From Candidatus Latescibacterota bacterium (GTDB lineage Bacteria > Latescibacterota > UBA2968 > GCA-2709665), in the NCBI GenBank assembly GCA_965203805.1, contig OZ241917.1:3904001-3968000 (forward strand): a stretch of 64,000 nucleotides of DNA. Reading direction: 5' to 3'. Numbering within the stretch: the stretch's first letter is position 1; each line of letters begins with the position of its first letter. Positions 6,764-55,034 of this stretch are shown here, piece after piece. Below the pieces are notes generated by a model, which was given only the letters and a program-made list of their open reading frames with translations, was not told the DNA's origin and did not search any database. The position numbers were made by a program, and so were the translations under genes.

Positions 6764-6782
6764 ATAGTGCCCGAGGAATCAA

Positions 6783-15686: not shown

Positions 15687-15702
15687 TTGAGGGCCTACGA
15701 GG

Positions 15703-16809: not shown

Positions 16810-16868
16810 TACAGAGTGCCTTCATAGAATTCAAAAAAACGCCGATCAAGATAGGATTTCAGTGAGGA

Positions 16869-19575: not shown

Positions 19576-19585
19576 GAGACTTTCG

Positions 19586-21335
19586 ATGCCCGACGACAAA
19601 CCAGCCGTTAATGCAGAAGTAATCGCCGTATACCCAAACCGTGTACGGATATCCGTAGACGATCTGTCGTCGTTCCGATATGCGGAAGAGAGCCTCCGTG
19701 TCGGCTCCTATCTCAAGGTTTCCGACAACGAAAACGTCGCGCTCATGTGTATAATCGAGAGTTTCTCAATTGAGGTGAGTGAGAGCCAGGAGGGGAAGAC
19801 GGACCGCCGCTACGTAATCGATGCTTACCCCCTAGGAACGCTCAGCGATGGTGAGTTTCGGCGTGGCGGCGATGAACTTGCAATCCCGCCCAAGAAAGTC
19901 GTTCCTGCGGCTAGTGCAGAAGTTGGGGCGATTTACACAAATGCCTTCGAAACTGGCAAGCGTTTCTCGTTCTCGACATTGGGTCGTAAACGCGAGATTG
20001 ACGTTCCCGTACATGGTGACAGGTTCTTTAACAAGCATATTGCAATCGTTGGTGCGACTGGATCTGGAAAATCGCATAGCATCGCAACGATAGTGCAGGA
20101 GGCTGTAGATGCCCGGCAGGGCGACTACAAGGGACTAAACAACGCCCACGTAGTTCTCTTCGACATCCACTCGGAGTATCGATCCGCATTCCCGAATGCA
20201 AGGGTCTTGGGAGTCGAGGACTTGACGCTTCCGTATTGGCTACTAAACGAGGATGAAATGGAGGAGATGTTCCTCGAATCTGGTGATCGTAACAACTACA
20301 ACCAGGAATCGATCCTCCGAACTGTCGTTACGCTCTGCAAAAAGTCAAAGAACCCTGAGGCGGAAAGGATCTACTTCGATAGTCCTCTCAAGTACGACAT
20401 TCAGGAGGTTGTCAACTGTTCTGATGAATCTTACGCGGGAAACAAAGGACGCTGAAGATCCCTTGCATATCGTCACCTCCGAAGGCGACAAGACATTCAA
20501 CGAGGAAGAGAACAAGCTACGGTGGTATTGCGTCAAACGTCGCACTTTTGCTTCCCCACAAAGGGCCTCAAAGGAGAAGACCGGCATCAATAAGGGCGCT
20601 TACGCCGACGGAAGCATCGACAAGTTTGTGCGGCGGCTTTCCGCAAAGATTGGCAACCCACGCCTAGACTTCATTTTTGGGAAGAAAGCCTCCGGCATGG
20701 AGTTTGAAGCCGTACTGGAGCAACTAATGGGGTACGGGGACGACAATTCAGCCAACGTGACAATTCTGGATCTGAGCGGAATTCCCTTTGAAGTCATTAG
20801 CATTACCGTGTCCTTAATCACGCGTGTCTTGTTCGACTACGGGTACTACTTCCGACGCTCCAAGCAACGATGCGATACGCCGCTTCTACTCGTGTATGAG
20901 GAAGCCCACAAGTACGCACCCAAGAGCGAATTGGCACGATTCAGAGCTTCTTTGACAGCGATAGAGAGAGTGGCAAAGGAGGGGAGGAAATACGGCGTCA
21001 GCCTGCTGATTTCCAGCCAGCGTCCGTCAGAGATTTCTGAGACGATCTTTGCTCAATGCAGCAACTTTCTAGCGATGAGGCTGACAAACCCAGATGACCA
21101 AGCGTATGTCCGCAGATTGCTCCCGGACACGCTCGGCAACCTGACGTCAGGACTTCCGGCTCTTGAGTCGGGGGAGGCGTTGCTTATCGGAGATGCTACG
21201 ATCATGCCCTGCGTTGTGTATGTAAGGCCCTGCAACCCCGCGCCTTCATCAAGCGACATACCTTATTATCAGATATGGCAAGAGGCTTGGAAGTCGGTCG
21301 ATTTCGGAAGCGTGACGACGGAATGGCGCAGGTAG
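19586..21335 (+). pseudogene. herA: HerA/FtsK-like anti-phage helicase, split by a +1 frameshift at about 20420
   Basis: The 5' part has a HAS-barrel-like AEVIAVYPN..VGSYL and Walker A GATGSGKS. The 3' part has Walker B VYEEAH, EGRKYG, SQRPSE and RLTNPDDQ. Deleting T20420 gives continuous ..VVNC-LMNLTRETK.. Confidence 0.85.
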
Positions 21336-22228: not shown

Positions 22229-22278
22229 TCGAGATGTACGTGCTGTCGGTATCGAAAAATGAACTTAGTGGCGCGATT

Positions 22279-22311
22279 GGAGCCCGGAAGAAACACGATC
22301 CGGGCTCCTTT
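22279..22311 (+). terminator. Intrinsic terminator-like hairpin
   Basis: GGAGCCCGGA-loop-TCCGGGCTCC followed by TTT, downstream of the beta-barrel gene. Confidence 0.6.
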
Positions 22312-22323
22312 GCTATGTTTTTT

Positions 22324-22350
22324 TGAACCCATTGCGCCCGGCCCGTGTCT
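22324..22350 (+). promoter_or_regulatory. Putative ECF-sigma promoter TGAACC-N17-GTCT
   Basis: The same boxes and spacing recur at 59189-59215 upstream of another GWxTD gene. Confidence 0.45.
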
Positions 22351-22420
22351 TTTGGGAAGGACGGGCTTTGGACATCAACCTCATTCAGATCTCCTCGAAG
22401 CGAGAGTAAGACGTCTTGCA

Positions 22421-27202: not shown

Positions 27203-27234
27203 TTTGGGCAGATGTAAGTTCAGGAGGTCTCGTA

Positions 27235-29691: not shown

Positions 29692-32010
29692 ATGTCATCC
29701 CTGATTGTTCGTCACATCCAAAGATGGTTTAGAAGGTTCACTTCCTATGGAGTTGTACCTTTTTGCCTTGGATTCTCTGTCATTTCACCACTCGAAGGCA
29801 CGACGAAGCAGTATGCCGATACGATTTTTGAGTCAGCTCTGGAACAGGTCGATCGCGTCACCGTCGAGCAGAGCCTGCAGGACTTCCGAGCTGTATTGAA
29901 GGCGGACCGGGACTACGCGCCGGCTCATTACGAGATCGCGAAATTGTATATGTCGCTTGACACGCCTATGGATCGCCAAAGCGCGCGCAGGTCGTTGGAC
30001 GCGGCGATTCGATTGGAACCGGGTAATGGGGACTATCAATTGAAGCTCGGTGAGTTGCTCGCCAAACAGGGACTCTGGTTGAGGGCTGAGCGCCAATATG
30101 AAAAGGTGTGCGAAACCCACCCCGAGAGGATTGCCGAGGCAGCATATATGGTAGGGTTTTTTTCCCTGCAGGCGTTCTTGAAGTATATCGATATGGAGCA
30201 CATAGATATTATTACTGGCGGCGGGCCACCTACATATCACCTGTTTCGTTGGGAAGAATTCGGTGCGCGCGATCGGGAAAAAGCACTGGCATTCCTTATA
30301 AAGAGCATCGAGGCCGATTCTGGGTTACGTGATGCCTATTTTGATTTGGGACTGATCCATTATGAGAGCAAAAACCCCAAAGGGCTCGTAACAGCATCAA
30401 AGCTCTGCCTGGATCAGTATCCTGAGGATAAGGACGCGTTGCTCTATTGTGGGTTGGGCTACTTGGGGATGGGTGAATTGAAAACTGCCCACGAGTATTA
30501 TATACGCGCGTTGGGGCGAATGTCGGCGCAGGAACGCGCTCTGATGGAGTCGGTGGACCTGATTGCAAGCAAGAAGGAACTATCGGCGCTTGATTCGATT
30601 GCGACAATCGATACGACCCGATACGGATGGACGGATAACCTTGAGGGGGTGCGATTCTGGCGGAAACGTGATCCACTGTATCTGACGGCATTCAGCGAGC
30701 GGCGGATGGAGCACTATGGACGGGTGGCTTATGCCAATCTAAGATATGGGCAGCGGTTGAAGGGGATACCGGGATGGCAGACGGACCGCGGGAAGGCATA
30801 TATCAAATTCGGGCGGTATCTCAGCAAATCGGCGACGCGGCTGGAGTTGCCAGGCGGTGTCGATGGAGCGAGCACCAGCATTAGTAGAGTCGTTCAGGGT
30901 GGGAATGAAGAGTGGTATTATGATGGTTTTTCAATTTCGTTTTTCAACAGCGACGGTCTGGATTCGTGGCGTTTCGATACCCGTCCAGGGAGGGTCTCTG
31001 GTCGATATACGTTTAATCATGAACCGACTCACTATAGGGACCCGTATCGCCATCGCAAGTACAGAATTCCTTACCAGGTTGCGAGCTTCAAGGACGGGGA
31101 CAACTACCGGGTGGAACTTGCATACGCGCTGCCGAAATACAATGTATCTGCCTCGGATGCGGACAGTGGTTTTGTATTGGAAAACGGAGTATTTGTGTTT
31201 GACGAGAACTGGGACGAGATATATCGGAAGCGGTCGGATCTCAACCTGAGTTGGCCTGAGTTAACGCCCATCGGGTATCCTGCTGCGGACAGCTTGCGGA
31301 ATAGTCACGTGGTGTTTCAGTTGGCATTCAGGGTAGCGCCTGGCACGTACAATCTGGTCGGTGAGGTGCGGGACCGGAAGCGGGGGTCTATAGGTACGTT
31401 TCGTGAGGAGCGCGGCTTTGCGACCGCGGATACAGTGTTGTTGCTGAGCGATCTGCTGTTGGCCACGCAGATTGAGACGGGACCGCCTTTTCCGGAGAAG
31501 AGAAGCCACCTCAACGTCGTTGCGAATCCACTGCGGACCTACGATCGGTCGGAGCCCGCATTCATCTACCTGGAGGTTTACAACCTGAAGCGAGATGAGT
31601 ACGGACGCACGGAGTATGAGATCTCCTATCGCATCGGGCGGCTTGGAGCAGAAGAGATCGATCCGTACGTGTTCATAGCGGAGCGATTACCGGGGAATGG
31701 CAAGCCGTCGGGTGCGGCACAGGTGCATGTGACACGCAACGAACGACTTGAGGTGACAGAGGTGGAAGAGGTGCGGGACGGCGAGGACGATGAACGGGCC
31801 AGGAGGATCGAAGAAACGGGACCCGGCGGAGAGGGATTGAAGACGACCGTAACAAGCCGATATCAAGGACACCGAGAGGATGATTTCACATATCTGCAGA
31901 TTGACCTGGGTCACGTCCCTGTGGGTGTACACCTGCTGTCGGTTAGGGTCAAAGACGTGAAAACCGGACAGGTGGCTACGCGTGAAGAACTGCTGCGTGT
32001 GATCGAGTGA
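29692..32010 (+). CDS. TPR + GWxTD domain protein (array copy 4)
   Basis: SD CAGGAGG, GWQTDRGKAYIKFG; long near-identical tracts shared with copy 2. Confidence 0.9.
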   Translation: MSSLIVRHIQRWFRRFTSYGVVPFCLGFSVISPLEGTTKQYADTIFESALEQVDRVTVEQSLQDFRAVLKADRDYAPAHYEIAKLYMSLDTPMDRQSARRSLDAAIRLEPGNGDYQLKLGELLAKQGLWLRAERQYEKVCETHPERIAEAAYMVGFFSLQAFLKYIDMEHIDIITGGGPPTYHLFRWEEFGARDREKALAFLIKSIEADSGLRDAYFDLGLIHYESKNPKGLVTASKLCLDQYPEDKDALLYCGLGYLGMGELKTAHEYYIRALGRMSAQERALMESVDLIASKKELSALDSIATIDTTRYGWTDNLEGVRFWRKRDPLYLTAFSERRMEHYGRVAYANLRYGQRLKGIPGWQTDRGKAYIKFGRYLSKSATRLELPGGVDGASTSISRVVQGGNEEWYYDGFSISFFNSDGLDSWRFDTRPGRVSGRYTFNHEPTHYRDPYRHRKYRIPYQVASFKDGDNYRVELAYALPKYNVSASDADSGFVLENGVFVFDENWDEIYRKRSDLNLSWPELTPIGYPAADSLRNSHVVFQLAFRVAPGTYNLVGEVRDRKRGSIGTFREERGFATADTVLLLSDLLLATQIETGPPFPEKRSHLNVVANPLRTYDRSEPAFIYLEVYNLKRDEYGRTEYEISYRIGRLGAEEIDPYVFIAERLPGNGKPSGAAQVHVTRNERLEVTEVEEVRDGEDDERARRIEETGPGGEGLKTTVTSRYQGHREDDFTYLQIDLGHVPVGVHLLSVRVKDVKTGQVATREELLRVIE

Positions 32011-32042: not shown

Positions 32043-32818
32043 ATGTCATTGCGAATAGTTCGTCACATCCAACGATACTGGAGAGGGTTACCTCCTACTG
32101 GTTTTGCGTTTATATGCTTCGGGTTCTATGTACCAATGCCGCTCGAAGCCACAACACAGCAATACGCCAATGAGCTATATGAAACTGCGGTAGAGCAGGC
32201 CGGTCGCGTCACCGTCGAGCAGAGCCTGGAGGCTTTCCAGCGAGTATTGAATTCGGACCGGGACTTTGCGCCGGCCCACTACGAAATCGCAATGCTTTAT
32301 ATGTCCCTTGACACGCCCCTGGATCGCCAGAGCGCACGCAGGTCGCTGGATGATGCGATTCGGCTGGAGCCGGGCAACGGGGATTATCAACTGATGCTCG
32401 GTGAGTTGCTCGGCAAGCAGGGACTCTGGCCAAATGCCGAAGGGCATTATGAGAAGATATACGAGAACTTTCCTGAACATCGCGCCCAAGCAGCTTACAT
32501 GGTTGGATTTTTTCCGTGCAAGCTTTCCTGAAGTATCTTGAGATGGAGCCTGTAGAAATCGTCGCAGGTGGAGTAGGGTCGCCAACGTACCGCCATGTCC
32601 GCTGGGAAGAACACGGAACGCGGGATAGAGATAAAGCACTGGCATTCCTGATAAAAAGCATCGAGGTCGATCCTGAAAATCGAGACGCGCATTACGACTT
32701 GGGACTGATACACTATGAGAGCGAGAATCCGAGGGGGTTGGTATTGGCATCAAAGCCGTGCCTGGATCAGTTTCCCGAGGACAAGGACGCGTAGCTCAAT
32801 TGTGGGTTGGGGTACCAA
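32043..32818 (+). pseudogene. Truncated GWxTD-family array copy 5 (signal + TPR part only)
   Basis: The 5' end is near-identical to copy 3. T6 at 32508-32513 (T7 in copies 2 and 4) shifts the frame, and TTG has become TAG at 32792. Homology ends after CGLGYQ at about 32818. Confidence 0.85.
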
Positions 32819-32889
32819 TGCAAACTCGACTTCCGGTTCAGGATAGCAATGGTCCGATTTGCATTTTTGAATGGCAGGAAGGTAACGTC

Positions 32890-35800
32890 ATGCGGTTGAT
32901 CATTTGGAGTATTCTCGTATTCGCATTCTGCATTCTGGCAACCCCCTGTCTTGTCGAAGCGTCGGACCGTGATTATCTCACGGTAACGTCAGTGGCCGGG
33001 GATCAAGCAATTGCAGTCCAACGTGGCAAGGGTGCCACTTCCGTCACTGAAATCTGGATTGTCTCGTTTGAGGACACCCAACCCAGGAGGATCAAAACCT
33101 ACCTTGGAGAACTGGGCGATCTCTTTTTTGATCCAGCTGGCGATACCTTAATTTATCTGGAACGAAGCCTGCGACATCACGCCTGGGCATCCTATTACTA
33201 TGGTGGGCTGTCTCTTCCGATTGCAAGGAACACGGTGTGGAAGTTGAGCTTGCACGGCGGCGAAGAGGAAGAGTGGCCCCTTCCGAAGGATCTTCAACCT
33301 CTCCAATTCGGGCTTTCTCCTGATGGACGGTCATTGGCGGTCATTGGTTATCGACGCAGTGCTTTCGAGCGCACAAGACACGGCCTCTGGACAGTCGACA
33401 GACGGGGAGACATCAGGCTTTTGTTTGCTGGTAACGTAAGTGGGCCTGTCGATTGGTCAGATGATGGAAAAACTGTTTCATGCGGTGTCAAGGACGACGG
33501 GGAGGCGATCCGTGTTCACGTGGAGACGGGCGAAACTGTTCCGTCGATTCCGAAGGAAGGAATTCCTGCGAACGGAAGACAAGATCGAGATTCCTTGTCC
33601 AGGGCGAGGCCCACGAACGCTTTGCGTCAGTCCGATTCGTCAGATATCCCCCTACGTTTGATCAGTTCCGGCCTGAACCTATACATACGCGGCAGAAATG
33701 CCCTCCACAGAGGAAACGAAGACAATGCGAAAGAACTGTTCGAGCATGCCAGACGCGAATTCAAGAGACTCTACGATCAGGCCGCGACGTACGGATTGTC
33801 GAGGAATAGTTGCGCAAGATATATCAAAGCTTGTGAGATTTGGATCAAAGCAGACGCCAGGAAGGCCGACAGACGCAACTGCCAGGAGCGCTTGACGGGG
33901 ATGCTCCGGCTGATGGACGAATTCAAGCGCGCCCGGAACAACAACGAACCCGCGGACCTTGCTGAATTGCATCAGTGGGCAACGCGGAGGATTGTTGCAG
34001 ACGCGCCGGCAGGAAAGGAACTGGATGACAGGAAAGCGATCCTTGGCGTGCTGTTCTCGTGCCCGTCAAACCGGGACTACACATTTCTCAGCGATTATCT
34101 GTATAAGCACCAGGGATTGCCAGGCGCGCCGGCCCTGGCCTGTTTATGGCACCGCGGCGAGCAGATCGACGGTGTCGCGGACCTCAAGGGCGGTCACACG
34201 GAAATTTCGCGCATACCCGCAGCACGGGTCGACAGCCTGGCATCCACCGGGCGCCGCGCCATGGACGCGAATGAGCTGGACCGGGCGCGCCTGATCTACC
34301 GGAACGTCGCGCGTCAACGGCCGAGGGATCCCGACGCGTTTATCCACCTGGGTCACATTCTTCTGAAATTGAGACGATTCGAGGAATCGAAGGACGCGTT
34401 TTACCGCGCCATGATCCTCGGCAGCAAAGCGCTGGCGCACCACGGCCTGGGTATGCTTTACGCGATGTGGCCGATGCAGCGGCATTTCGCGATTCACCAT
34501 TTTACCGAAGCGTTGATCAAGGACCGGGACTTCGTGGACGCGCGATATCGGATGGCCAAAGTTCGTTATGAGATGAAACAGCGTGACGCGGAGCTGGAGC
34601 TGAAACGGGTTCTGAAAATGGACCCCGGCCACGCGGACGCTTATCTGATGATTGCGGACTATTACCTGAACCTGTCCTGGGAATTCGAGAAGGCCGTCGT
34701 GTGGTATACGAAATACCTCGCGCTTCGCCCGGAAGACGCGGCCGCGCAGCGCCGGCTGGGCGTTGCGTACCTGAAGGTGAGGGACTATTCGAAGATTATG
34801 GGCCACCTGCTGGACTTTGTCAGGAAACATCCGGAGTCCATCGAACTGATGCCGATCGTCGCTATTTCTGCCATCGAACAGGACAGTCTGGATATGGCAA
34901 TGAGGTTTTTCGAAGGCTACGTTGCCAGGGTTTCGCCCGATGTACGGCGTCGGTACGAAGATATATCACTCGTTGCTTCCAGGGATGAACTCAGGACCCT
35001 TGACGAAGCCGCGAATGCCCATCGCGAGACGTATTTGAGTCGTTTCTGGAATGGAAAGGACCCGGACCTGTCCACGTCCGTGAACGAGCGTCTGCTGGAA
35101 CACTACCGACGGGTCTGGTACGCGCTGACGGATTTTTCGGAGGGCAGGCAACCATGGGACGCGAGGGGCGAGGTCTACATTCGATTCGGGGAACCCGACC
35201 ACCGGTCCAGGTCGGACGACCCAAACTTCAGACAGAGCCTGGCGGTGCAGCGGGTCAAGGAGCGCCTTGCAATCAACATTTACAAGGGCGACGTACGGGC
35301 GCATACGTTCGTGGGTCCTGTTTATCCCATCCGCAGCATCAAACAGCTGGACGGCGCGTGGTACGACCTGAAGGACATCGGAATTGGAAACCCGAACGCA
35401 TCGGCGCGTGAACCGGGGGACGACGAGACTGGCACCCCCGACGACATGGGAAGAAGCTCTTCGGGTGATGAAGGAGTCACAGAGTCGTCGCCCGCACCAA
35501 ACGATACCGTCCGGTTCGGCATTTTGTCCTTGGACGAGCGCTTGGGATTCGGCGACTATCACCCGGTTACAGCTGGTGATGATCCGAGTACAGTGCCTTG
35601 GGAAACGTGGGTTTACACCGATGTGGCAGGCGGAGTTGAAATCACCTTTACCGACGAAATCGGTTCCGGGACCTACGATTACGCGCCCATGCCGCCCAAC
35701 CAGGGTGACATAGAGATCCGCCAGACCACTGCATTGAGAAGCCACTCACCAAGAGAGATCTACAAGAGAGCGGCACGTATAGCACCCAATTACTATCCGG

Positions 35801-36636
35801 CGGAATACGAGAATTCGCATCTTGACTTCCACTATTCACTGGCCGACTTCCGAGGTGAGGGCGACAAGAGCCTTCTCGAAATCTACTACGGCGTCCCGAT
35901 TTCCCCGGCCCACTACCAGGCGGACGAGGACGTCACGCGCCTGGTTCTGACGCACCACGCAGCACTGATTTCATCCGCGCTGGACACGGTCTATCGGAAG
36001 ACAAATGAGATTGACTACAAGGCTGAGGGTAATCAGGCCGGTGAAGGTCAGCTGGTGCCTGACGTGCTGAAATTGAACCTGCCGCCCGGCGCTTATCGTT
36101 TAGAGGTAAAGTCGCAGGATCGCGCAAAAGGGAGAATGGGCATCTATCAGCAACAGGTCGTGGTGGAGCCCTATGGCGGGGATGGATTGCAGATCAGCGA
36201 CCTGGAATTGGCCTGGAGGATTACTGCCGAAAAGTCGGAGGGCAGATTCGCCAAGGGAGATCTGCAAGTAATACCAATGCCTTCCCGGACATACCGGAAA
36301 GGCCAAAGCGTTTTTGTTTACTACGAGGTTTACAACCTGAAAAAAGACGAATTCGGACAGACGAACTACAATGTCTCCTATACGATCACATCCAGTGACG
36401 CACCTCAACAGGCGAGCAATATCTCTCGTCTGTTCAGATGGGGAACGGGCACGAGGGAAGAATTGGCCGTTTCGTACGAACAACTGGGTGACGCTGCTCG
36501 AGAAGTGGAATACGTGGAACTGGCGCTGGACGATCAGGTTCCAGGCCGATATTCATTGAAGGTTTCGATAAACGACAGGAACAGCGGCACTTCGGTGGAG
36601 AAAGACGCGGTCTTTGTCATTGCTCGAAAGGATTGA
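32890..36636 (+). CDS. Large GWxTD-like protein: signal + TolB-like propeller + Cys/His pilin-like domain + TPR + PWDARG core
   Basis: MRLIIWS signal; LSPDGRSLAV and WSDDGK blades; C..CP..CLWH; FWNGKDP...NERLLEHYRRV...PWDARGEVYIRFGEPD. Confidence 0.85.
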   Translation: MRLIIWSILVFAFCILATPCLVEASDRDYLTVTSVAGDQAIAVQRGKGATSVTEIWIVSFEDTQPRRIKTYLGELGDLFFDPAGDTLIYLERSLRHHAWASYYYGGLSLPIARNTVWKLSLHGGEEEEWPLPKDLQPLQFGLSPDGRSLAVIGYRRSAFERTRHGLWTVDRRGDIRLLFAGNVSGPVDWSDDGKTVSCGVKDDGEAIRVHVETGETVPSIPKEGIPANGRQDRDSLSRARPTNALRQSDSSDIPLRLISSGLNLYIRGRNALHRGNEDNAKELFEHARREFKRLYDQAATYGLSRNSCARYIKACEIWIKADARKADRRNCQERLTGMLRLMDEFKRARNNNEPADLAELHQWATRRIVADAPAGKELDDRKAILGVLFSCPSNRDYTFLSDYLYKHQGLPGAPALACLWHRGEQIDGVADLKGGHTEISRIPAARVDSLASTGRRAMDANELDRARLIYRNVARQRPRDPDAFIHLGHILLKLRRFEESKDAFYRAMILGSKALAHHGLGMLYAMWPMQRHFAIHHFTEALIKDRDFVDARYRMAKVRYEMKQRDAELELKRVLKMDPGHADAYLMIADYYLNLSWEFEKAVVWYTKYLALRPEDAAAQRRLGVAYLKVRDYSKIMGHLLDFVRKHPESIELMPIVAISAIEQDSLDMAMRFFEGYVARVSPDVRRRYEDISLVASRDELRTLDEAANAHRETYLSRFWNGKDPDLSTSVNERLLEHYRRVWYALTDFSEGRQPWDARGEVYIRFGEPDHRSRSDDPNFRQSLAVQRVKERLAINIYKGDVRAHTFVGPVYPIRSIKQLDGAWYDLKDIGIGNPNASAREPGDDETGTPDDMGRSSSGDEGVTESSPAPNDTVRFGILSLDERLGFGDYHPVTAGDDPSTVPWETWVYTDVAGGVEITFTDEIGSGTYDYAPMPPNQGDIEIRQTTALRSHSPREIYKRAARIAPNYYPAEYENSHLDFHYSLADFRGEGDKSLLEIYYGVPISPAHYQADEDVTRLVLTHHAALISSALDTVYRKTNEIDYKAEGNQAGEGQLVPDVLKLNLPPGAYRLEVKSQDRAKGRMGIYQQQVVVEPYGGDGLQISDLELAWRITAEKSEGRFAKGDLQVIPMPSRTYRKGQSVFVYYEVYNLKKDEFGQTNYNVSYTITSSDAPQQASNISRLFRWGTGTREELAVSYEQLGDAAREVEYVELALDDQVPGRYSLKVSINDRNSGTSVEKDAVFVIARKD

Positions 36637-39938: not shown

Positions 39939-40988
39939 ATGCGACGATATATCCTTTTTGTAATGTGTGCAATTGGCGCACTGCTGGCTTTTTGTCAAGA
40001 TTCGTTCGCACAACCCGCCGGCAATGCCGATTTCGACGGCAATGGCATCGTGGATTTCGGGGACTTCATTCTCTTCGCCCAGGCCTTCGGGTCGAATCAA
40101 TCTCAATTCGACCTCGACGGCAACAATAACGTGGATTTCCCGGATTTCATCCTCTTCGCGAGCCGGTTTGGGGAAGGTATGCCTGAAGAGAAGATTACCG
40201 TTACGCTTCCGGGAGGCGAAAAGCTGGAGATGGTCTGGATCCAAGCGGGCAGGTTCCTGATGGGATCGCCCGTTTCAGAACCCGGGCGCAGGGATGACGA
40301 AGGTCCCCGGCATGAAGTCACAATCACACAGGGATTCTACCTCGGAAAATACGAAGTCACCCAGGCGCAGTGGCAGAGCGTGATGAATACGCGTCCGTGG
40401 GAGCGATTGGGAGCAACCGATGAACTTGAGAAGGCAAAATACCCGGCTCGCAGCGCACGTTGGGAGTGGATACAGTCATTCATTCGGAGATTAAACCAGG
40501 CGGAAGGACGGGATATTTTCCGGTTGCCGACGGAGGCGGAGTGGGAATACGCGTGCAGGGCAGGCACTACGACACCGTGGTTTTTCGGAGCCGACTCGAG
40601 CCGTATCGGCGATTATGCCCGCTATCGTGAGAACTCTCGGACGGCGACGGTGATGCCCGACGGCCGCACTGTCTATGGAAGCCGGGAGCCTCAGGAGACG
40701 GGAGGCGTATTGCCGAATCCGTGGGGCCTATACGATATGTATGGAAATGTTATGGAATGGGTTCAGGATTACTGGGCACCGTATTCAGGAGAGGCACAGA
40801 TCGATCCCAAAGGGCCGCACGAGCCTGCCGAGTTTGACAATGTCAATGCGGGATGGCAGGGGTCATTCCATGTTGCCAGAGGGGGCTATTTTTTCGACAC
40901 CGCTCTCAGAATGCGGTCGGCGATGCGTGTTCGCGGTGCGGGTGCGAGTCACCGAATTGGGTTTCGTTTGCTGATGGAACATCGGTGA
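39939..40988 (+). CDS. Exported EF-hand/dockerin-like + FGE/SUMF1 domain protein (copy 1)
   Basis: Signal peptide; DFDGNGIVDFGDF/DLDGNNNVDFPDF; F.MGS, YEVTQ, RLPTEAEWEYACRAG, NPWGLYDM.GN, RGG..RSA.R..GFR. Confidence 0.9.
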   Translation: MRRYILFVMCAIGALLAFCQDSFAQPAGNADFDGNGIVDFGDFILFAQAFGSNQSQFDLDGNNNVDFPDFILFASRFGEGMPEEKITVTLPGGEKLEMVWIQAGRFLMGSPVSEPGRRDDEGPRHEVTITQGFYLGKYEVTQAQWQSVMNTRPWERLGATDELEKAKYPARSARWEWIQSFIRRLNQAEGRDIFRLPTEAEWEYACRAGTTTPWFFGADSSRIGDYARYRENSRTATVMPDGRTVYGSREPQETGGVLPNPWGLYDMYGNVMEWVQDYWAPYSGEAQIDPKGPHEPAEFDNVNAGWQGSFHVARGGYFFDTALRMRSAMRVRGAGASHRIGFRLLMEHR

Positions 40989-41058
40989 GTCGCCTGACGG
41001 CAAATCAGAATCAAAGGGGAGAGATCTTCATGTTCAGGTAAGGCGGTGGACATCGCCT

Positions 41059-41087
41059 TTTACGGGACTTGACTTATATCATATAAT
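41059..41087 (+). promoter_or_regulatory. Sigma70-like promoter TTTACG-N17-TATAAT
   Basis: Perfect -10 box with canonical spacing, about 125 bp upstream of FGE copy 2. Confidence 0.5.
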
Positions 41088-41212
41088 CATTCTTCTTATT
41101 CTTGGTGACGGATCTTGCTGGTTTCGACGTACCTGGGCTCTCTGAGATTCGAGTCCCTTCCCGGGATTCCCGTGCCTTTTCGCGTTAAGCGGTTTAAAGG
41201 AGCCGTGGAGAC

Positions 41213-42244
41213 ATGAGACGGAATACGTTCTCGCTGATATTCGCCGTTCTAGGTATGCTGAGCCTGAACCAGCTTGTGATGGCGCAGTCTCGCGATGCTG
41301 ATTTCGACGCCAACGGAATCGTGGACTTTGGGGATTTCATTTTGTTCGCGCAGGCTTTCGGGTCCGATCAATCCCAATTTGACCTCGACGGCAACGGAAG
41401 CGTGGACTTTCCGGATTTTATCCTTTTCGCGAAGCAATTCGGTGAGGGTCAGCCGGAAGAGGATATTACGGTGACGTTGCCCGGCGGCGCGAAGCTGGAG
41501 ATGGTCTGGATCCAGCCGGGACGCTTCCTGATGGGGTCGCCCGATTCTGAGCCCGACCGGGACGATCACGAGGGTCCCCGGCATGAAGTCACGATTACAA
41601 CGGGATTCTACATGGGCAAGCACGAAGTCACGCAGTCGCAATGGGAGAGCGTGATGAATACGCGTCCGTGGCTTATGGGAGTGGTTTCTCAGGTTCCCGG
41701 GAAAGAGAACTTTCCGGCGAATAGAATGCGCTGGCGCGAAATCGAGACATTCATTCGTGAATTGAACGAGGCCGAAGGATCGGATATTTTCCGGTTGCCC
41801 ACTGAGGCGGAGTGGGAATACGCATGCAGAGCAGGCACCAAGACCCCGTGGTCGTTCGGAAACGACACGACCCGTATCGCCGATTACGCGCGATATTTCG
41901 GGAACTCACGCGGTGCCACCATTCTGGACGACGGGCGAAGAGTCTTTGGACCTCCGGAGGTGCAGGAAACAGGGGGCGTTTTCCCGAACCCGTGGGGCCT
42001 ATATGATATGCACGGAAATGTACGGGAACTCGTGCAGGATTACTACGGTCCGTATTCGGAAGCGCCGCAGGTCGATCCCAAAGGGCCCGACGGACCCGCT
42101 GGAGGACGCACTTCGGATGGCAGCCGCGTTGTGAGAGGAGGATCGAGTTTCGACCGCCCCCCGTGGATTCGGTCGGCTGCCCGTTCGTTCGGGTGGGTGC
42201 CGGACGCATTCACCGGGTTTCGTTTGCTGATGGAACATCGATAG
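41213..42244 (+). CDS. Exported EF-hand/dockerin-like + FGE/SUMF1 domain protein (copy 2)
   Basis: Same motifs as copy 1; ends MEHR*. Confidence 0.9.
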   Translation: MRRNTFSLIFAVLGMLSLNQLVMAQSRDADFDANGIVDFGDFILFAQAFGSDQSQFDLDGNGSVDFPDFILFAKQFGEGQPEEDITVTLPGGAKLEMVWIQPGRFLMGSPDSEPDRDDHEGPRHEVTITTGFYMGKHEVTQSQWESVMNTRPWLMGVVSQVPGKENFPANRMRWREIETFIRELNEAEGSDIFRLPTEAEWEYACRAGTKTPWSFGNDTTRIADYARYFGNSRGATILDDGRRVFGPPEVQETGGVFPNPWGLYDMHGNVRELVQDYYGPYSEAPQVDPKGPDGPAGGRTSDGSRVVRGGSSFDRPPWIRSAARSFGWVPDAFTGFRLLMEHR

Positions 42245-42373
42245 ATCAAGCGACGAAAGATACGTGGTTTCTTCCCGGTTGTCTGCGACGTACCTGGGCT
42301 CTCCGAGATTCGAGTCCCTTCCCGGGATTCCCGTGCCTTTTCGCGTTAAGCGGTTTAAAGGAGCCGTGGAGAC
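42230..42373 (+). repeat. Conserved inter-copy spacer of the FGE array
   Basis: ATGGAACATCGATAGATCAAGCGACGAAAGATACG..CGACGTAC..GATTCGAGTCCC..GGAGCCGTGGA. Repeated at 43391-43533 and 44551-44693; its 3' part also at 41125-41212. Confidence 0.85.
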
Positions 42374-43405
42374 ATGAGACGGAATACGTTCTCGCTGATA
42401 TTCGCCGTTCTGGGTATGCTGAGCGTGTACCAGCTTCTGATAGCGCAGTCTCGCAACCCCGATTTCGACGCCAACGGAATCGTGGATTTTGGGGATTTCA
42501 TTTTGTTCGCGCAGGCCTTCGGGTCGAATCAATCCCAATTCGACCTCGATGGCAGCAAAAGGGTGGATTTTCCGGATTTCATCCTCTTTGCCAAGCGCTT
42601 CGGGGAGGGTATGCCTGAAGAGAAGATTACGGTTACGCTTCCGGGAGGCGCAATGCTGGAGATGGTGTGGATCCAACCGGGCAGGTTCCTGATGGGTTCG
42701 CCTCTTACAGAAGGAGAACGAGATGACGACGAGGGTCCCCAACATGAAGTCACGATCACGAAGGGGTACTATCTAGGCAAATACGAAGTGACGCAGGCAC
42801 AGTGGGAAAACGTGGTAAACACACGTCCGTGGCTAGTGGGATCGACTTCCGAGGTAGCAGGGAGAGAAAACTTTCCGGCAAATAGAATGCGCTGGCACGA
42901 AGTCCAGACATTTTTCCAAAGATTGAACGAATTGGAAGGAACTGATGTCTACCGACTACCGACGGAGGCGGAGTGGGAATACGCATGCAGGGCTGGCACC
43001 ACGACTCCGTGGTCATTTGGAGCAGACTCGTCTCGTATTGCCGATTACGCGCGATATTATGAGAACTCCCGTTCGTCAGTCGTCCTTGAAGACGGGCGCA
43101 CAGTCTACGGAAGCCCAGAGGTACAGGAAACCGGGGGCGGATTCCCGAACCCGTGGGGCCTGTACGATATGCACGGGAATGTAAGGGAGCTCGTGCAGGA
43201 TTACTATGGACCGTATTTGGAAGCGCCACAGGTTGATCCCCAAGGGCCCGACGGCCCCTCTGGAAGACGATTTCCACAATACAGTCACGTCGAAAGAGGA
43301 GGTTCTGGTTTCGACCGCCCAGTGGGGATAAGGTCGGCTGCACGATCCCTCGGTTGGATACCCAATGCCTTCACCGGGTTTCGCGTTGTGATGGAACATC
43401 GATAG
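42374..43405 (+). CDS. Exported EF-hand/dockerin-like + FGE/SUMF1 domain protein (copy 3)
   Basis: Same motifs as copy 1. Confidence 0.9.
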   Translation: MRRNTFSLIFAVLGMLSVYQLLIAQSRNPDFDANGIVDFGDFILFAQAFGSNQSQFDLDGSKRVDFPDFILFAKRFGEGMPEEKITVTLPGGAMLEMVWIQPGRFLMGSPLTEGERDDDEGPQHEVTITKGYYLGKYEVTQAQWENVVNTRPWLVGSTSEVAGRENFPANRMRWHEVQTFFQRLNELEGTDVYRLPTEAEWEYACRAGTTTPWSFGADSSRIADYARYYENSRSSVVLEDGRTVYGSPEVQETGGGFPNPWGLYDMHGNVRELVQDYYGPYLEAPQVDPQGPDGPSGRRFPQYSHVERGGSGFDRPVGIRSAARSLGWIPNAFTGFRVVMEHR

Positions 43406-43533
43406 ATCAAGCGACGAAAGATACGAGGTTTCTTCCGGGTTGTCTGCGACGTACAGGGGCGCTCGGCGATTCGAGTCCCGCCCGCGATTCGGTGGCCGTT
43501 TCGGGATAAGCAGTTAAACGGAGCCGTGGAACC

Positions 43534-44565
43534 ATGAAACGAAAGTCGATCACGCTGATATTCGCCGTTGTGGGAATGCTGAGCGTGTACCAGCTTCTGA
43601 TAGCCCAGTCTCGAGATGCCGACTTCGATGCCAACGGAATCGTGGACTTCGGGGATTTCATCCTGTTCGCGCAGGCGTTCGGGTCGGATCAATCTCAATT
43701 CGATCTCGACGGTAGCGGAAGCGTCGATTTTCCGGATTTTATCCTGTTTGCGAAGCAATTTGGTGAGGGTCCGCCGGAAGAGGATATTACAGTGACCCTA
43801 CCTGACGGCGCAAAGCTGGAGATGGTCTGGATCCAACCCGGGAGGTTTCTGATGGGATCGCCCGATTCTGAGTCGGGTCGGTATGACGACGAGGGTCCCC
43901 AGCATGAAGTCACGATCACGAAGGGGTTCTACCTGGGCAAGTACGAAGTCACACGAGCGCAATGGGAGGGAGTCATGCACACACGGCCGTGGGCTTGGGC
44001 CGGCACTTTCGAAGATCCCAAGAAAGCCAAGTATCCAGCCGTCAACGTGGCCTGGCGAGCAGTTGAGACGTTCATTCGTAGATTAAACGAATCGGAAGGA
44101 AGGGAAATTTTCCGATTGCCCACGGAGGCGGAGTGGGAATACGCGTGCAGGGCTGGTACGACAACCCGCTGGTCGTTCGGGGAGGATTCGACCCGTATCG
44201 CGGATTACGCACGTTATAACGAAAACTCGCGGGCCGTGATCGTCAGAGATGACGGTAGCATAGCGTATGGAAGCCCGGAGGCACAGGAGACGGGTAGCGT
44301 CTTTCCGAACCCCTGGGGGCTATACGATATGCACGGGAACGCACGTGAGTGGGTGCAGGATTTCTATGGTCCGTATTCGGCACAGCCCCAAACTGATCCC
44401 ACGGGTCCAGAGTGGCCAACCGAAGGAAACGCACCGCAAGATAGCCACGTCGAGCGAGGGGGAGGATACAACGACCGCCCCGGATCGGTACGGTCTGCTG
44501 TCCGTTATCGCGGCTTGGGGCAGAGTATCCTAACTGGTTTTCGTGTGGTGATGGAACATCGATAG
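43534..44565 (+). CDS. Exported EF-hand/dockerin-like + FGE/SUMF1 domain protein (copy 4)
   Basis: Same motifs as copy 1. Confidence 0.9.
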   Translation: MKRKSITLIFAVVGMLSVYQLLIAQSRDADFDANGIVDFGDFILFAQAFGSDQSQFDLDGSGSVDFPDFILFAKQFGEGPPEEDITVTLPDGAKLEMVWIQPGRFLMGSPDSESGRYDDEGPQHEVTITKGFYLGKYEVTRAQWEGVMHTRPWAWAGTFEDPKKAKYPAVNVAWRAVETFIRRLNESEGREIFRLPTEAEWEYACRAGTTTRWSFGEDSTRIADYARYNENSRAVIVRDDGSIAYGSPEAQETGSVFPNPWGLYDMHGNAREWVQDFYGPYSAQPQTDPTGPEWPTEGNAPQDSHVERGGGYNDRPGSVRSAVRYRGLGQSILTGFRVVMEHR

Positions 44566-44693
44566 ATCAAGCGACGAAAGATACGAGGTTTCTTCCGGGT
44601 TGTCTTCGACGTACAGGGGCGCTCGGAGATTCGAGTCCCGCCCGCGATTCGGTGGCCGTTTCGGGATAAGCAGTTAAACGGAGCCGTGGAGCC

Positions 44694-45734
44694 ATGAAAC
44701 GAAAGTCGATCACGCTGATATTCGCCGTTGTGGGTATGCTGAGCGTGTACCAGCTTCTGATAGCCCAGTCTCGAGATGCCGACTTCGATGCCAACGGAAT
44801 CGTGGATTTTGGGGATTTCATTTTGTTCGCGCAGGCCTTCGGGTCGAATCAATCCCAATTCGACCTCGATGGCAGCAAAAGGGTGGATTTTCCGGATTTC
44901 ATCCTCTTTGCCAAGCGCTTCGGGGAGGGTATGCCTGAAGAGAAGATTACGGTTACGCTTCCGGGAGGCGCAATGCTGGAGATGGTGTGGATCCAACCGG
45001 GCAGGTTCCTGATGGGTTCGCCTCTTACAGAACGAGAACGAGATGACGACGAGGGTCCCCAACATGAAGTCACGATCACGAAGGGGTACTATCTAGGCAA
45101 ATACGAAGTCACGCAGGCGCAGTGGGAGAGCGTGATGCATACCCGGCCTTGGGCGAGGTTCGGAGCATCTGGTGATTCAAAAAAAGCGAACTTTCCGGCT
45201 TTCTACATGGAATGGAGGGAGGTACAGTCGTTTTTACGCAGATTGAACGAGAATGAGGGGAGGGAGGTTTTCCGATTGCCGACGGAGGCGGAGTGGGAAT
45301 ATGCGTGTAGGGCTGGCACGAAAACAACATGGTCGTTTGGAGAAGATGAGAGTCAGCTAGACAGTTACGCGCGCTATTACGAAAACTCACGGAGCGCCAC
45401 GGTTCTGGAGAACGGGATTATCGTGTACGGAAACAGAGAGCCCCAGGAAACAGGCGGCGCTTTTGCGAATCCGTGGGGTCTTTACGATATGCACGGAAAC
45501 GTATGGGAGTGGGTGCAGGATGTTTATGGCACGTATTCGGAACAGGCGCAGACCGATCCAACAGGACCTGATCATCCTTCTCACTCTGAATTGTCCGGGT
45601 ACACATATCCTGACGGATATATAGTTATAAGAGGGGGTTCCTATTTGGATGACGCCCAGGAAGTTCGGTCTGCTGTACGTAGGAGTGGTACACGTAGCCG
45701 CACTGGGTTTCGTGTGCTTATGGAACACCGATAG
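44694..45734 (+). CDS. Exported EF-hand/dockerin-like + FGE/SUMF1 domain protein (copy 5)
   Basis: Same motifs as copy 1. Confidence 0.9.
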   Translation: MKRKSITLIFAVVGMLSVYQLLIAQSRDADFDANGIVDFGDFILFAQAFGSNQSQFDLDGSKRVDFPDFILFAKRFGEGMPEEKITVTLPGGAMLEMVWIQPGRFLMGSPLTERERDDDEGPQHEVTITKGYYLGKYEVTQAQWESVMHTRPWARFGASGDSKKANFPAFYMEWREVQSFLRRLNENEGREVFRLPTEAEWEYACRAGTKTTWSFGEDESQLDSYARYYENSRSATVLENGIIVYGNREPQETGGAFANPWGLYDMHGNVWEWVQDVYGTYSEQAQTDPTGPDHPSHSELSGYTYPDGYIVIRGGSYLDDAQEVRSAVRRSGTRSRTGFRVLMEHR

Positions 45735-51545: not shown

Positions 51546-54500
51546 ATGAGATTTCTACTTGAACGCCTACGAACGATTCGACCTGCTCTGGTCACGTTTT
51601 TCGTCGGTATATCCGCGGTTATTTGCTCCATTGGCGACGTCGATGGAGAAACTCGCCGGCAGTCGATTTCCGTCACCAGCGATGGACAAACGGCCTGGGC
51701 CGTCTGGCTGGAAACCGGACCGGTCGCCGTTTCGGAGATCTGGGTCGCGACCGAAGGAGGCGCGCCACGTCGTCTGGGCATCTTTCCCGGTCTTCCGGGA
51801 AGCCTGGCGTGGGTACCGGAAGGGGACCGGCTTCAGTACCGCGAAACGACCCTTAATGTCGCGTTGTACAGTCTTTCAATCGCACCGAAGCGATCCGTCC
51901 CCCTGGTGTCGCCAGGAGCCTGGGAGATCTCGATCCGTAATGGATCCATCCGGCGTCTGGCGGGAATGGAAATTGATAAAACCGGAACGCCTTCGGATGC
52001 GAGGGTTGCGGGACCACCTCCCCCGAGCAAAGGCGCGGAATCAGTTCTGGCGGGCGTTGCGGCAGCATTCAAGGCCACGGCCCTGGCGTACAGCACCCTG
52101 CATCGATGAAATTTCGAAGAGGCAGAGGAACGGTACCGAAAGGCCGCGAAGTCCTGGGAGGCTCTTTCCGGGAGATTCAGCAAACACGGCCTGTATGAAG
52201 AGCCAGTGTCGGCCTACGTTAAAGCGCTTGGCGCAATGGCCGCGAAGGCCAGAGAACCGTCCGGCGCACGATGGGTCTGCCGGGACCATTTAACCGTTAT
52301 CGGAGACCTCCTGCAGGCCCACGAGCAGGGCCACGACGGCCGGCGGCCGGCGGATCTGGGCGCGCTGAGGGCGTGGGTTGAATCCCATACGTTGACGCGC
52401 GCTGACTCGATCGTCATGAAGACCCTGTTTCGATCACCGGCCGACCCCGAGGAAGACCGTCTGATCAGCTACACCCACGGATACCGCCGGGAAGCCGCCG
52501 CCGGAGAAGCCGCGCTCACGAGTTTCTTTCATGGCGGTCACCTGGTCGAATCCGTCCGCAGCGACACGGGCTACCAAACGATTGACCGGCGGGTGGGCCG
52601 GACGCAGATAGATTCGCTCTTGACCCTTGGGGTCGAATTCACCCAAAGAGATCCTCTGAGGGCCATTTCCACACTGGAGATTCTGGCCGGCGTGGCGCCG
52701 GACTTCGCCATCGGCCACAGCAAGCTTGGCTTCGCCTATCTTGAAGTCGGGAACCTGGTTCGCGCCATCCACGCGTTCGAAGGCGCGATCAAAGCCGACC
52801 ACACGCTCGCTGAGGCCTATTACGGACTGGGTCTTACCTTCCGAAGGTGGCCCAGGGGTTCCTACGACGCCATTCGCTACCTCCAGAAAGCCCTTCAGTA
52901 TAAGCGGGACTATGTCGAAGCCCGATACAATATCGCCGAGATCCGGCACAAACTGGAAGAACACGACGCCCGTCTCGACCTGGAAAAGGTGATGGCAATA
53001 GATCCCAGGTACGCCCCGGCCTACCTGCTGATGGGAAGATGGTATGAAGAATTCGAGAAGGACTTTGAAAACGCCGCGCTCTATTACGCCCAATATATCA
53101 GCCTGGCGCCCGAGGATCCCGAGGGCAGGAAGCGCCTTGCCGCGGTCTACCTGGAAACCCGCAACTTCGCGCGTATCGCCGAAATGTTGCAGGAATACGC
53201 ACTGGAACATCCCGACGACGTCCAGATCCTGCCGATTCTCGCGCAGGCCTGTGTCAGGTTGGAGGCCTTCGACAGGGCGGAAGCCTTTTTCAGGGATTTC
53301 CTTGAGTCGGCTGATTCTGCCGAGCGGACGCACTATGAGGATATCCGCCTGGTCGCCTCGTCGGAGACGATGGCGGCTTTTGAGCGGACACCCCGGTCGG
53401 ACAGAGGGGCATTTCTGGATTCGTTCTGGTCCGATCGAGACCCGGATCTGACCACGGCCGCTAATGAACGCCGGCTGGAGCACTACCGGCGGGTGTGGTA
53501 CGCGATTCAGAATTTCTCGGAAGGCAAGCAGCCGTGGGACCAGCGCGGGGAAGTCTACATCCGGTTCGGCGAGCCGGACCACCGGTCGCGATCCGACAAC
53601 CGGAACTTCCAGCAATCTCTGGCGGTCCAGCGGATTAAGGAGCGCCTTTCCGCAGCGCTTTACGGGGCGGCTGTATCCCCGCACATGTTTCTCAAGTCCG
53701 ATACCGATCTGGATGGAATTGGCAACGTCCGGGGCGACGTACCGATTCAGACTTCGGGCCCCGGTGCAACGTACGCCGGGCCGGTCTATCCTGTGCGAAG
53801 CCACAGTGCGGTGAGCGTGGGTGAGTCTCCGGGGTTCAGTGCGGAATATCAGGGTGATGGCATCAAAAGGAAACAAGCTGCCCGGATGGGGATTGACCGT
53901 ACGGAGCAGGAAGAACAGATACTCGGCGCCGGCAGGGGCAGCGGCAGGCCGGTTAACTTCAAACCCGTGACCAGCGCGGAGGATGCCTCCATCGTCCCCT
54001 GGGAGACATGGGTTTACGTGAACGTGGGCGGGGGTATCGAGATCACTTTTACCGATGAATTCCACAACGGCATCTACAACTACGCGCCCGCGCCGCTTGA
54101 CGCACGCATACCCAGCCGGCAGCAGGCCATGCTGACCCGCTACAACCCCCATAACGTATACCGGATGGCTGCCGCGGCAACCCCCGATTACTACGTGACG
54201 CCGGAAAACGAGGATCCAATGGAGTTCTACTTCGACTCGGCCGATTTCAGAAGCTACCAGGGTTACGATTCGGCCCTCGAAGTCTACGCGGGGATCCCGC
54301 GTCACGAGGGTCAATACCTGGACGCCGACGACCGCACGGAGATCGAAGCCGACCGGACAGTCGCCCTTCGCAATCGGACGACCGGAGCGGTTTACAGGAG
54401 CCGGGAACGGATACGCTTTGCGGCCAGAGGCGACCTGACCGCCGAAGGAAGCGCGTTCGTCCCGGACGTCGCTCGAATGGACGTGCCGGCCGGGCTCTAT

Positions 54501-55034
54501 CGAATGGAAGTCAAGATGAAAGACCGACTGTCCCCGCGGCACGCGCGTTACCGGCAGGACGTTGAAGTCGAATCCTACGGCAGCACGGGCCTTCAGGTGA
54601 GCGACCTGGAGATGGCCTGGCGGATTTCCCGGAGTAAGAGCGAGGACAAATTCAGCAAGGGCAGGCTTTGGGTCATTCCAATGCCCACGCGGACGTATGA
54701 AAAGGGCCAGAGCGTCTTCGTGTATTACGAGATCTATAATCTGACCCGGGATAAATTCGGGCAGACGAACTACGAGGTCTCCTACACGGTCACCTCAGAC
54801 GACAATCCGGTCGCAGTGGGCATCATTTCCAGCCTAACCCGGTGGAGGAAAGGCAAACGCGAAGAACTCTCGGTCACGTACGAGCAGCAGGGTACGTCTG
54901 CCCGGGAAGCGGAATTCGTGGAACTCGAGCTGGAAAACCGCCCGGCGGACAAATACCTATTGAAAGTAGCGGTCAGAGATGTCAACAGCGGCGAAACCGC
55001 CGAGAAGGACGCCGGGTTCGTCATCGCGGAATAG
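51546..55034 (+). pseudogene. Large GWxTD-like protein (third of its subfamily) interrupted by an in-frame TGA at 52107-52109
   Basis: ORFs 51546-52109 and 52206-55034 share one frame. The 32 intervening codons are open (NFEEAEERYRKAAKSW..) and align with the paralogs. PWDQRGEVYIRFGEPD core. Confidence 0.8.

Follow-up and report, generated by a model that had tools for sequence, protein, structure and literature searches.

We describe an array of five tandem genes in a 64-kb stretch of contig OZ241917.1 of a Candidatus Latescibacterota bacterium (positions 3,904,001 to 3,968,000, hereafter the window), each of which codes for a protein combining a dockerin-like module with a domain of the formylglycine-generating enzyme (FGE) fold that lacks the catalytic cysteine pair. 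The array is an old, maintained set of paralogues within a multigene family restricted to one genus of a marine, host-associated lineage of Gemmatimonadota; it was not generated by shuffling and is not still diversifying. We favor, at a probability of roughly 0.55, the reading that its products are cohesin-docked, non-catalytic, lectin-like binders tied to the gene directly downstream, which codes for a protein with tetratricopeptide repeats (TPR) and a GWxTD region; both the docking and the ligand binding are here predicted from sequence.

The five co-oriented genes on the + strand code for proteins of 349, 343, 343, 343 and 346 residues, with start-to-start distances of 1271, 1161, 1160 and 1160 nt (Table 1). 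The open reading frame (ORF) coordinates agree with an earlier note on this DNA, which had reported genes of 343-349 residues, the last four about 1160 bp apart and all ending in MEHR, and the paired EF-hand motif that it described (DFDxNGIVDFGDF...DLDGxxxVDFPDF) is present in all five. The mean column identity of the proteins is 80%, and the block DFDxNGIVDFGDFILFAQAFGS.QSQFDLDG...VDFPDFILFA is invariant among them. Read by eye, their N-terminus (MRRNTFSLIFAVLGMLSVYQLLIAQS...) resembles a signal peptide of the Sec type that has no lipobox cysteine. The repeated spacers before copies 3-5 gave no Rfam match in a scan of the whole window; their fold z-scores range from -0.42 to +2.37, none better than shuffles, and candidate sigma-70-like promoters (4 versus 3.8 expected) and terminators (7 versus 5.8) occur at chance level.

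The larger part of each protein is matched by the Pfam FGE-sulfatase model (residues ~96-340, E 2e-37 to 5e-41). An AlphaFold2 model of copy 3, built from a 66-sequence alignment, has a mean predicted local distance difference test score (pLDDT) of 87.4 and a predicted template-modeling score of 0.80. In a Foldseek search of the PDB with this model the top match is TvpA (2y3c, E 1.7e-18, template-modeling (TM) score 0.76, target-normalised), the variable protein of a diversity-generating retroelement (DGR), followed by PvdO, human (E 1.5e-15) and bacterial FGEs, ToxD, CalU17, PorK and EgtB. The core motifs RLPTEAEWEYA and NPWGLYDMxGNVxEW are common with the FGE family. In the profile-to-PDB alignment the human FGE segment GGSYMCHRSYCyryRCAARS stands opposite RGGSGFDRPVGI, a three-column gap and RSAARS of copy 3, which places human Cys336 opposite I319 and Cys341 opposite S321. 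In copies 1-5 these columns hold M/I/I/V/V and S, respectively, and R320-S321-A322 is conserved in at least 90% of the 66 relatives. As the cysteine pair is replaced, the FGE fold is kept and copper-dependent FGE activity is impossible. The best NCBIfam match is pyoverdine_PvdO and the best PDB sequence match is likewise PvdO (E 8.9e-17), yet the proteins fall short of the NCBIfam equivalogs for both PvdO (95.2 bits versus a cut-off of 500) and GldK (64.4 versus 350). Thus Pfam, Foldseek and the alignment to human FGE converge on what the earlier note had proposed, an FGE domain without the catalytic pair, and the combination of such a non-catalytic FGE/C-type lectin (CLec) domain with a dockerin-like module stands as it described. 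Domains of the FGE fold that have lost catalysis abound in bacterial genomes, nearly all of them, to our knowledge, uncharacterised.

The family has a narrow distribution. The best 60 protein-search matches are of 339-363 residues with 61-94% identity, those that are named being labelled Gemmatimonadota; more distant relatives of ~330 residues (47-50% identity) match both Pfam Dockerin_1 and FGE-sulfatase. The 41 related genomes searched include 14 others of the same genus, of which 10 have tandem arrays with 2-5 full-length copies, and no full-length close copies were found outside the genus; at E<=1e-60 no array was found in the same-genus genomes G003, G007, G011 and G013, which are 92-99% complete. 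One copy in G009 (C1:1470124-1471150) is broken by an in-frame TGA, hence array copies can decay.

Phylogenetic analysis of 40 intact copies from 11 same-genus genomes recovered two conflicting histories within the same genes. The tree of the FGE part (residue 85 to the end) comprises 8 supported groups and 1 singleton, each group mixing genomes. The five copies studied here are five different types, each nearer to copies of other genomes than to its neighbors; types are common to up to 7 genomes, and a genome carries 0-5 of them. In the tree of codons 1-90 the copies group by genome, with 22 genome-label changes (shuffles: mean 30.2, minimum 26) and 25 type-label changes, as against 34 genome-label changes in the FGE tree. 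In approximately unbiased (AU) tests the N-terminal data reject a type C clade (p 2.6e-10) and do not reject the small type F clade (p 0.225), and the FGE data reject clades of copies 2-5 of this genome (p 6e-28) and of copies 3 and 5 (p 1.7e-33). Type-label changes along the gene number 25 (residues 1-90), 17 (91-140), 9 (141-200), 9 (201-280) and 8 (281-343), with a possible minimum of 8, which places a recombination boundary near residue 140 and indicates that both variable segments are inherited together; the last three counts, like the within-type entropy given below, are partly circular because the types were read from the FGE tree, and to that extent they weaken the case, this circularity touching neither the AU tests nor the conflict between the two trees.

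The nucleotide sequences reveal the process behind the discordance. A sliding-window comparison gives 98-100% identity for copies 2/3 between -67 and about +50 nt, 96-98% for copies 4/5 between -127 and +110, and 100% for copies 3/5 at nt 143-410; beyond nt ~440 every pair stays at or below ~90% in all 60-nt windows, and identity drops to 31-75% at gene nt 443-560 and 863-1010. These two regions correspond to residues 151-190 and 291-335, in keeping with the earlier note, which had placed the variation after TRPW and in the RGG...GFR terminus. Its observation that the constant parts are shuffled (between copies 2/3 and 4/5, and between 3/5 over 320 bp with one substitution) is matched by exact tracts (Table 1), and the recombination test that it proposed on the aligned copies returned a real signal, limited to the spacer and roughly the initial 420 nt of each gene. 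This part, which comprises the leader, dockerin, linker and first strands of the fold, is kept alike within each genome by gene conversion. The recombination-built repertoire with variable binding ends that the note had put forward is not supported: recombination has moved the constant parts, but the variable ends are untouched by it and form stable types across genomes.

Contigs from other sequence runs have a limited bearing on this mosaic. Those of runs X1 and X3 hold nearly the whole stretch, the listed pieces being without any difference; they break at repeats, and the 320-nt tract is a separate contig of raised depth in both. This identity is weak evidence of homogeneity, because contigs drop rare variants. 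In X4, a run labelled sponge metagenome, the pieces are 95-100% identical and have other joints (43913 to 42769, and 39986 to 41291 with 33 other letters between), which fits other conversion mosaics in a related strain, weakly so because metagenome contigs can be chimeric at repeats. Contigs of X20, an RNA library labelled coral metagenome, are 90-95% alike and cover parts of copies 2 and 4; they show that an RNA library holds a relative's sequence, and do not show the locus itself to be transcribed. Where X4 or X20 leaves the stretch uncovered, this does not mean that those parts are absent.

The variable segments are under selection to stay as they are within each type. Column entropy at residues 151-190 and 291-335 is 1.4-1.7 bits overall and 0.3-0.4 bits within types. 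Ratios of nonsynonymous to synonymous substitution (dN/dS; Nei-Gojobori, 82 within-type pairs from different genomes) are 0.07 for the dockerin-like module, 0.12 for the core, 0.30 and 0.27 for variable segments 1 and 2, and 0.48 for the signal peptide; a further weakness of the case is the saturation of dS between types in the variable segments, where a correction fails for many pairs, and these estimates hold within types only. The variable segments are relaxed relative to the core, yet clearly under purifying selection within a type, and neither within-type entropy nor dN/dS gives any sign of ongoing diversification.

The fold naturally raises the question of a DGR. The array proteins combine the FGE-type CLec fold with a variable C-terminal segment, as DGR variable proteins do, and in the profile alignment variable segment 2 aligns with the C-terminal stretch of TvpA. 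According to PMC5006420, the variable region (VR) of TvpA and of Mtd lies in the C-terminal stretch; the statement of the earlier note that this CLec segment is the site diversified by DGRs in FGE-fold targets accords with this alignment. The note had also recorded no reverse transcriptase (RT) in the window, and the only RVT_1 match in the 5.87-Mb genome is indeed 2.2 Mb from the array. This 522-residue protein has Drt4 as its best NCBIfam match (82 bits, cut-off 450), followed by the group II RT model (72 bits, cut-off 300). A search for VR/template repeat (TR)-like repeats within 8 kb of it recovered a single 75-nt repeat of 84% identity, with indels and mismatches of all kinds, flanking a gene cluster beside the RT. 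Compared with the whole genome by blastn (word size 9), the five genes gave no off-array match to nt ~860-1030, the off-array matches being confined to the dockerin part and two conserved core stretches. Diversification by a DGR is rejected, as the sole RT is without DGR features and there is neither a template repeat nor an adenine-specific VR/TR pair. A variant of this idea, that a since-lost retroelement once diversified the C-terminal segment and the present types are its frozen products, would draw on TvpA being the top fold match and on the alignment of segment 2 to the VR-bearing stretch described in PMC5006420. We consider it very improbable: in addition to the remote RT with matches far below cut-off, the indel-bearing repeat beside it and the absence of any template-like copy of a C-terminus in the genome, the second variable segment falls outside the VR equivalent and the types are common to up to 7 genomes.

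The array also has a constant neighbor. In 11 of 11 loci taken from 10 related genomes, the gene immediately after the array codes for an orthologue of the 1296-residue TPR and GWxTD protein (74-84% identity). The GWxTD family has no described function: no paper on it turned up in the literature library searched, and an Atlas search gave GWxTD or hypothetical clusters only. Such strict synteny could also be invoked for an enzymatic role, in which periplasmic or secreted members of the FGE/PvdO/EgtB superfamily, with another active site, would act on a substrate such as the TPR/GWxTD neighbors or a polysaccharide, the types being substrate-specific isozymes. PvdO as the closest sequence match, the polysaccharide biosynthesis genes in the same window and the strong constraint on the fold core (dN/dS 0.12) would suit this alternative. 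We nevertheless regard it as rather unlikely, since the proteins lie far below the PvdO equivalog cut-off, the FGE cysteine pair is absent, the region of the FGE active site is the most variable part of the family, which would be unusual for a conserved catalytic center, and the columns invariant in the 66 relatives are motifs common to non-catalytic members such as TvpA and PvdO.

The reading as docked binders depends further on the N-terminal module. Type I dockerins (PF00404) consist of two tandem segments of ~22 residues, each with a 12-residue Ca-binding loop followed by a helix; in the loop consensus, positions 1, 3, 5, 9 and 12 hold D/N, position 6 is G and position 8 is hydrophobic. 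Set against this consensus, the array module displays both loop-helix segments, DFDANGIVDFGD followed by FILFAQAFG and DLDGSKRVDFPD followed by FILFAKRFG, with the helices at residues 39-48 and 66-74 of the copy 3 model. With the five modules as seed and one round of iteration, a hidden Markov model (HMM) recovered 61 of the 22,408 ORFs of at least 80 residues in the genome. Pfam Dockerin_1 scores over its cut-off at 13 other places of the genome, all 13 of which fall within these 61. A 51-row alignment of the modules has DFDGDGxVxFxDFxxFAxxFG twice, that is, a duplicated D-x-D/N-x-D/N-G-x-V/I-x-x-x-D loop plus helix, and in the 61 ORFs the module is located either directly behind the signal peptide or at the extreme C-terminus. 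By Pfam the ~56 other carriers include WD40-type propellers (7), leucine-rich repeat (LRR) proteins (5), FG-GAP/ASPIC proteins (3), S8 subtilases (2), heparinase II/III-like proteins (2), an M10 peptidase, a GH5 cellulase and one further FGE-domain protein, as well as HmuY, Big_2, Cache and PD40/SGL/Vgb-type propellers; for 25 no match other than dockerin or EF-hand reached E<=1e-5. A sixth dockerin and FGE-domain protein, of 410 residues, is encoded off the array at genome C1:2081571-2082803. EgtB/SenA-type models come closer to its FGE domain, with 98 and 93 bits, which is below cut-off, and hence the same tag is also found on a different branch of the fold.

Candidate partners for these modules are encoded in the same genome. 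The earlier note had advised a search for cohesin domains, and this recovered three cohesin-fold proteins: Pfam Cohesin scores over its cut-off at two places, in proteins of 1776 and 360 residues, and a family HMM detects a third of 266 residues. The 1776-residue, scaffold-like protein has both a cohesin and a dockerin-like module. The model of the type A sorting domain of a type IX secretion system (T9SS), TIGR04183, scores over its cut-off of 23 on the two cohesin proteins scanned with it (31.3 and 29.4 bits), and in the genome scan it matches 13 places, one at the C-terminal end of the 266-residue protein. The T9SS translocon protein SprA is present (621 bits), and no GldK equivalog scored over its cut-off in the genome scan. 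An AlphaFold2 model of the cohesin region has a pLDDT of 84, and among the Foldseek matches listed for it all are cohesin modules (best 6kgc_A, E 9.4e-8, TM ~0.6-0.68), including non-cellulosomal ones of Archaeoglobus and C. perfringens. A scaffold partner for the dockerin-like modules thus plausibly exists.

This co-occurrence extends across the Gemmatimonadota order. Proteins combining cohesin with the T9SS C-terminal domain (CTD) occur in 41 of 41 order genomes searched, each of these (G000-G040) coding for several small proteins with a signal peptide, a cohesin and the CTD; dockerin profile matches are likewise found in all 41, at 24-123 per genome, with 62 in the present one. Here dockerin genes lie near cohesin genes more often than expected, both within 5 kb (3 versus 0.39 expected, P 0.0065) and within 20 kb (6 versus 1.21, P 0.001), P values that are generous because clustered genes are not independent. 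We also observed a gene for a 639-residue dockerin protein ~2 kb from a small cohesin gene in several relatives (e.g. G005 C38, G010 C14 and G002 near 0.80 Mb).

Several points have to be set against the favored reading. Pfam Dockerin_1 matches none of the five array proteins at E<=0.01 and EF-hand models match only below threshold; NCBIfam dockerin_GC gives the array modules 22.4 bits versus a cut-off of 29. None of the 13 TIGR04183 places of the genome is in the array, and, as the products would be Sec-exported proteins of a diderm without a CTD, they might stay periplasmic and not meet a surface cohesin. A distance of 105 kb separates the array from the closest cohesin gene. Several families (EgtB, OvoA) use the FGE fold catalytically without the cysteine pair, and PvdO, of the same fold, is annotated in NCBIfam as a dehydrogenase. 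The equivalence of the variable segments to parts of TvpA and FGE is drawn at the level of sequence, which limits what it says on whether segment 1 adjoins the putative binding face. A predicted complex of cohesin, dockerin and two Ca ions scored 0.13 and 0.11 versus a mark of 0.32, without controls, and weighs neither way. The sub-threshold scores and the missing CTD, together with the imbalance of ~60 modules to 3 cohesin proteins, would also be expected if the module were a Ca-dependent stability, folding or sorting tag that binds no cohesin, leaving the proteins free in the periplasm or medium. We hold this to be improbable, given that modules and cohesin/CTD proteins co-occur in all 41 genomes, that dockerin genes cluster near cohesin genes, that no other part of the array proteins is as constrained as the module and that a cohesin and a dockerin-like module are combined in one scaffold-like protein.

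We posit a working model for the array proteins as docked binders. The dockerin would dock each of them on the cohesin of a T9SS-sorted surface protein, where the FGE-fold domain would serve as a non-catalytic binding module. Specificity would come from a type-specific surface made up of the C-terminal segment, the equivalent of the DGR VR, and the loop after TRPW, with a glycan or protein of the host or matrix as the most likely class of ligand. The family might cooperate with the TPR/GWxTD protein always found directly downstream, and conversion of the anchor might keep every type compatible with one partner. A bolder extension, which we consider speculative and distinctly unlikely as a whole, is an order-wide T9SS-based display in which dozens to more than 100 CTD-less Sec proteins per genome would be captured by small cohesin and CTD carriers and carried out or docked at the surface; the FGE types would then be interchangeable lectin-like receptors for ligands of the host (sponge or coral matrix), kept cohesin-compatible by conversion.

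Table 1. Coordinates of the array, its shared tracts, the repeat beside the RT and the TPR and GWxTD genes (window positions unless marked as genome)
Feature	Position	Strand	Remarks
Copy 1, type B, 349 aa	39939..40988	+	signal peptide; dockerin-like module aa 30-78 (nt 40026-40172); FGE-fold domain
Copy 2, type G, 343 aa	41213..42244	+	dockerin-like module nt 41297-41443; FGE-fold domain
Copy 3, type F, 343 aa	42374..43405	+	dockerin-like module nt 42458-42604; FGE-fold domain
Copy 4, type D, 343 aa	43534..44565	+	dockerin-like module nt 43618-43764; FGE-fold domain
Copy 5, type C, 346 aa	44694..45734	+	dockerin-like module nt 44778-44924; FGE-fold domain
Variable segment 1, copy 3 (aa 151-190)	42824..42943	+	loop after TRPW and helix; same columns in every copy
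Variable segment 2, copy 3 (aa 284-335)	43223..43378	+	RGG...RSAxR...GFR; aligned with TvpA C-terminal stretch and human FGE Cys336/Cys341 region
Repeated 128-129-nt spacer before copies 3, 4, 5	42245..42373, 43406-43533, 44566-44693	+	3' part also before copy 2
Tract, copies 3/5	42470..42789 = 44790..45109	+	320 nt, 1 mismatch at 42713; dockerin, linker, first ~45 aa of FGE domain
Tract, copies 2/3	41125..41250 = 42286..42411	+	126 nt, 1 mismatch; spacer and signal-peptide start
Tract, copies 4/5	43404..43646 = 44564..44806	+	243 nt, 4 mismatches; spacer, signal peptide, dockerin start
75-nt repeat flanking gene cluster beside RT	genome C1:1671429-1671502, 1677805-1677877		not a DGR TR/VR pair
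TPR and GWxTD gene	2738-5362	+	
TPR and GWxTD gene	22259-24844	+	
TPR and GWxTD gene	24878-27202	+	
TPR and GWxTD gene	27199-29658	+	
TPR and GWxTD gene	29692-32010	+	
TPR and GWxTD gene	32758-36636	+	
TPR and GWxTD gene, 834 aa	36979..39483	+	upstream of array
TPR and GWxTD gene, 1296 aa	45746..49636	+	starts 11 nt after copy 5
TPR and GWxTD gene	52206-55034	+	
TPR and GWxTD gene	59553-61922	+	

The array is embedded among ten TPR and GWxTD paralogues of 772-1296 residues, all on the + strand, in the window. Upstream of the GWxTD cluster, at 5717-17816, is a run of polysaccharide and sugar-nucleotide genes coding for an oxidoreductase, a split transketolase, a glycosyltransferase, an NDP-sugar dehydratase/epimerase, a DltB-like MBOAT protein and GalU. 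The segment 18301-21335 codes for a DUF4297 family anti-phage-associated protein (325 bits, over cut-off) and then an anti-phage HerA helicase, which is split in two overlapping ORFs (19559-20455, model positions 1-264, and 20253-21335, model positions 255-576); the gene is frameshifted or broken, or else the assembly is wrong here. The window opens with a match to the UshA-like (seleno)protein family at 26-2086, scoring 236 bits (cut-off 275); its C-terminal part is cytochrome-c-like.

Comparison with known systems helps place the array. With TvpA of Treponema denticola and Mtd of a Bordetella phage it shares the fold, the C-terminal variability and the lack of catalytic cysteines; unlike them, it has no RT, TR or adenine-directed mutagenesis, its diversity consists of a few old germline paralogue types under purifying selection, and it adds a second variable segment and a dockerin. 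With SUMF1, PvdO and PorK-GldK it shares the FGE-sulfatase domain and core motifs, but it lacks the Cys336/Cys341 pair and scores below the PvdO and GldK equivalog cut-offs. As in tandem paralogue families with concerted evolution, the 5' module is homogenised within a genome and the 3' module is orthologous across species; that is a general evolutionary pattern and not a defined system, and no switching or expression-site mechanism was found here. For Cloacimonadota, PMC8542988 proposes dockerin enzymes and a scaffoldin anchored by a T9SS CTD. Non-cellulosomal cohesin-dockerin systems, and the cellulosome-like complexes proposed for FCB-group bacteria such as these, are alike in having signal-peptide proteins with a duplicated Ca-binding dockerin, cohesin proteins that end in a T9SS domain, and cargo that includes peptidases and glycan-active enzymes. 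The array differs in the N-terminal position of its dockerin and in its cargo, a tandem non-catalytic FGE/CLec fold. Moreover, most of the other cargo in this genome is made up of repeat proteins (WD40, LRR, FG-GAP, NHL) and not glycoside hydrolases, and two of the three cohesin carriers are small single-cohesin proteins, none of the three having tandem cohesins. Judging by titles, we found no paper in the literature library searched describing dockerin-FGE fusions, dockerins in Gemmatimonadota or the order-wide cohesin-dockerin-T9SS pattern. The array is putative non-cellulosomal dockerin cargo with a non-catalytic FGE/CLec fold, and not a hypervariable repertoire built by recombination or a retroelement.

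These observations bear on two uncharacterised families at once, for which the docking tag, the few conserved types and the synteny with the GWxTD gene provide handles: a cohesin, a ligand and a type. They also present a case in which gene conversion is limited to a shared module while the specificity modules stay orthologous. The more interesting lead is the order-wide pattern of cohesins, dockerins and the T9SS, which may bear on how host-associated marine bacteria display repeat proteins.

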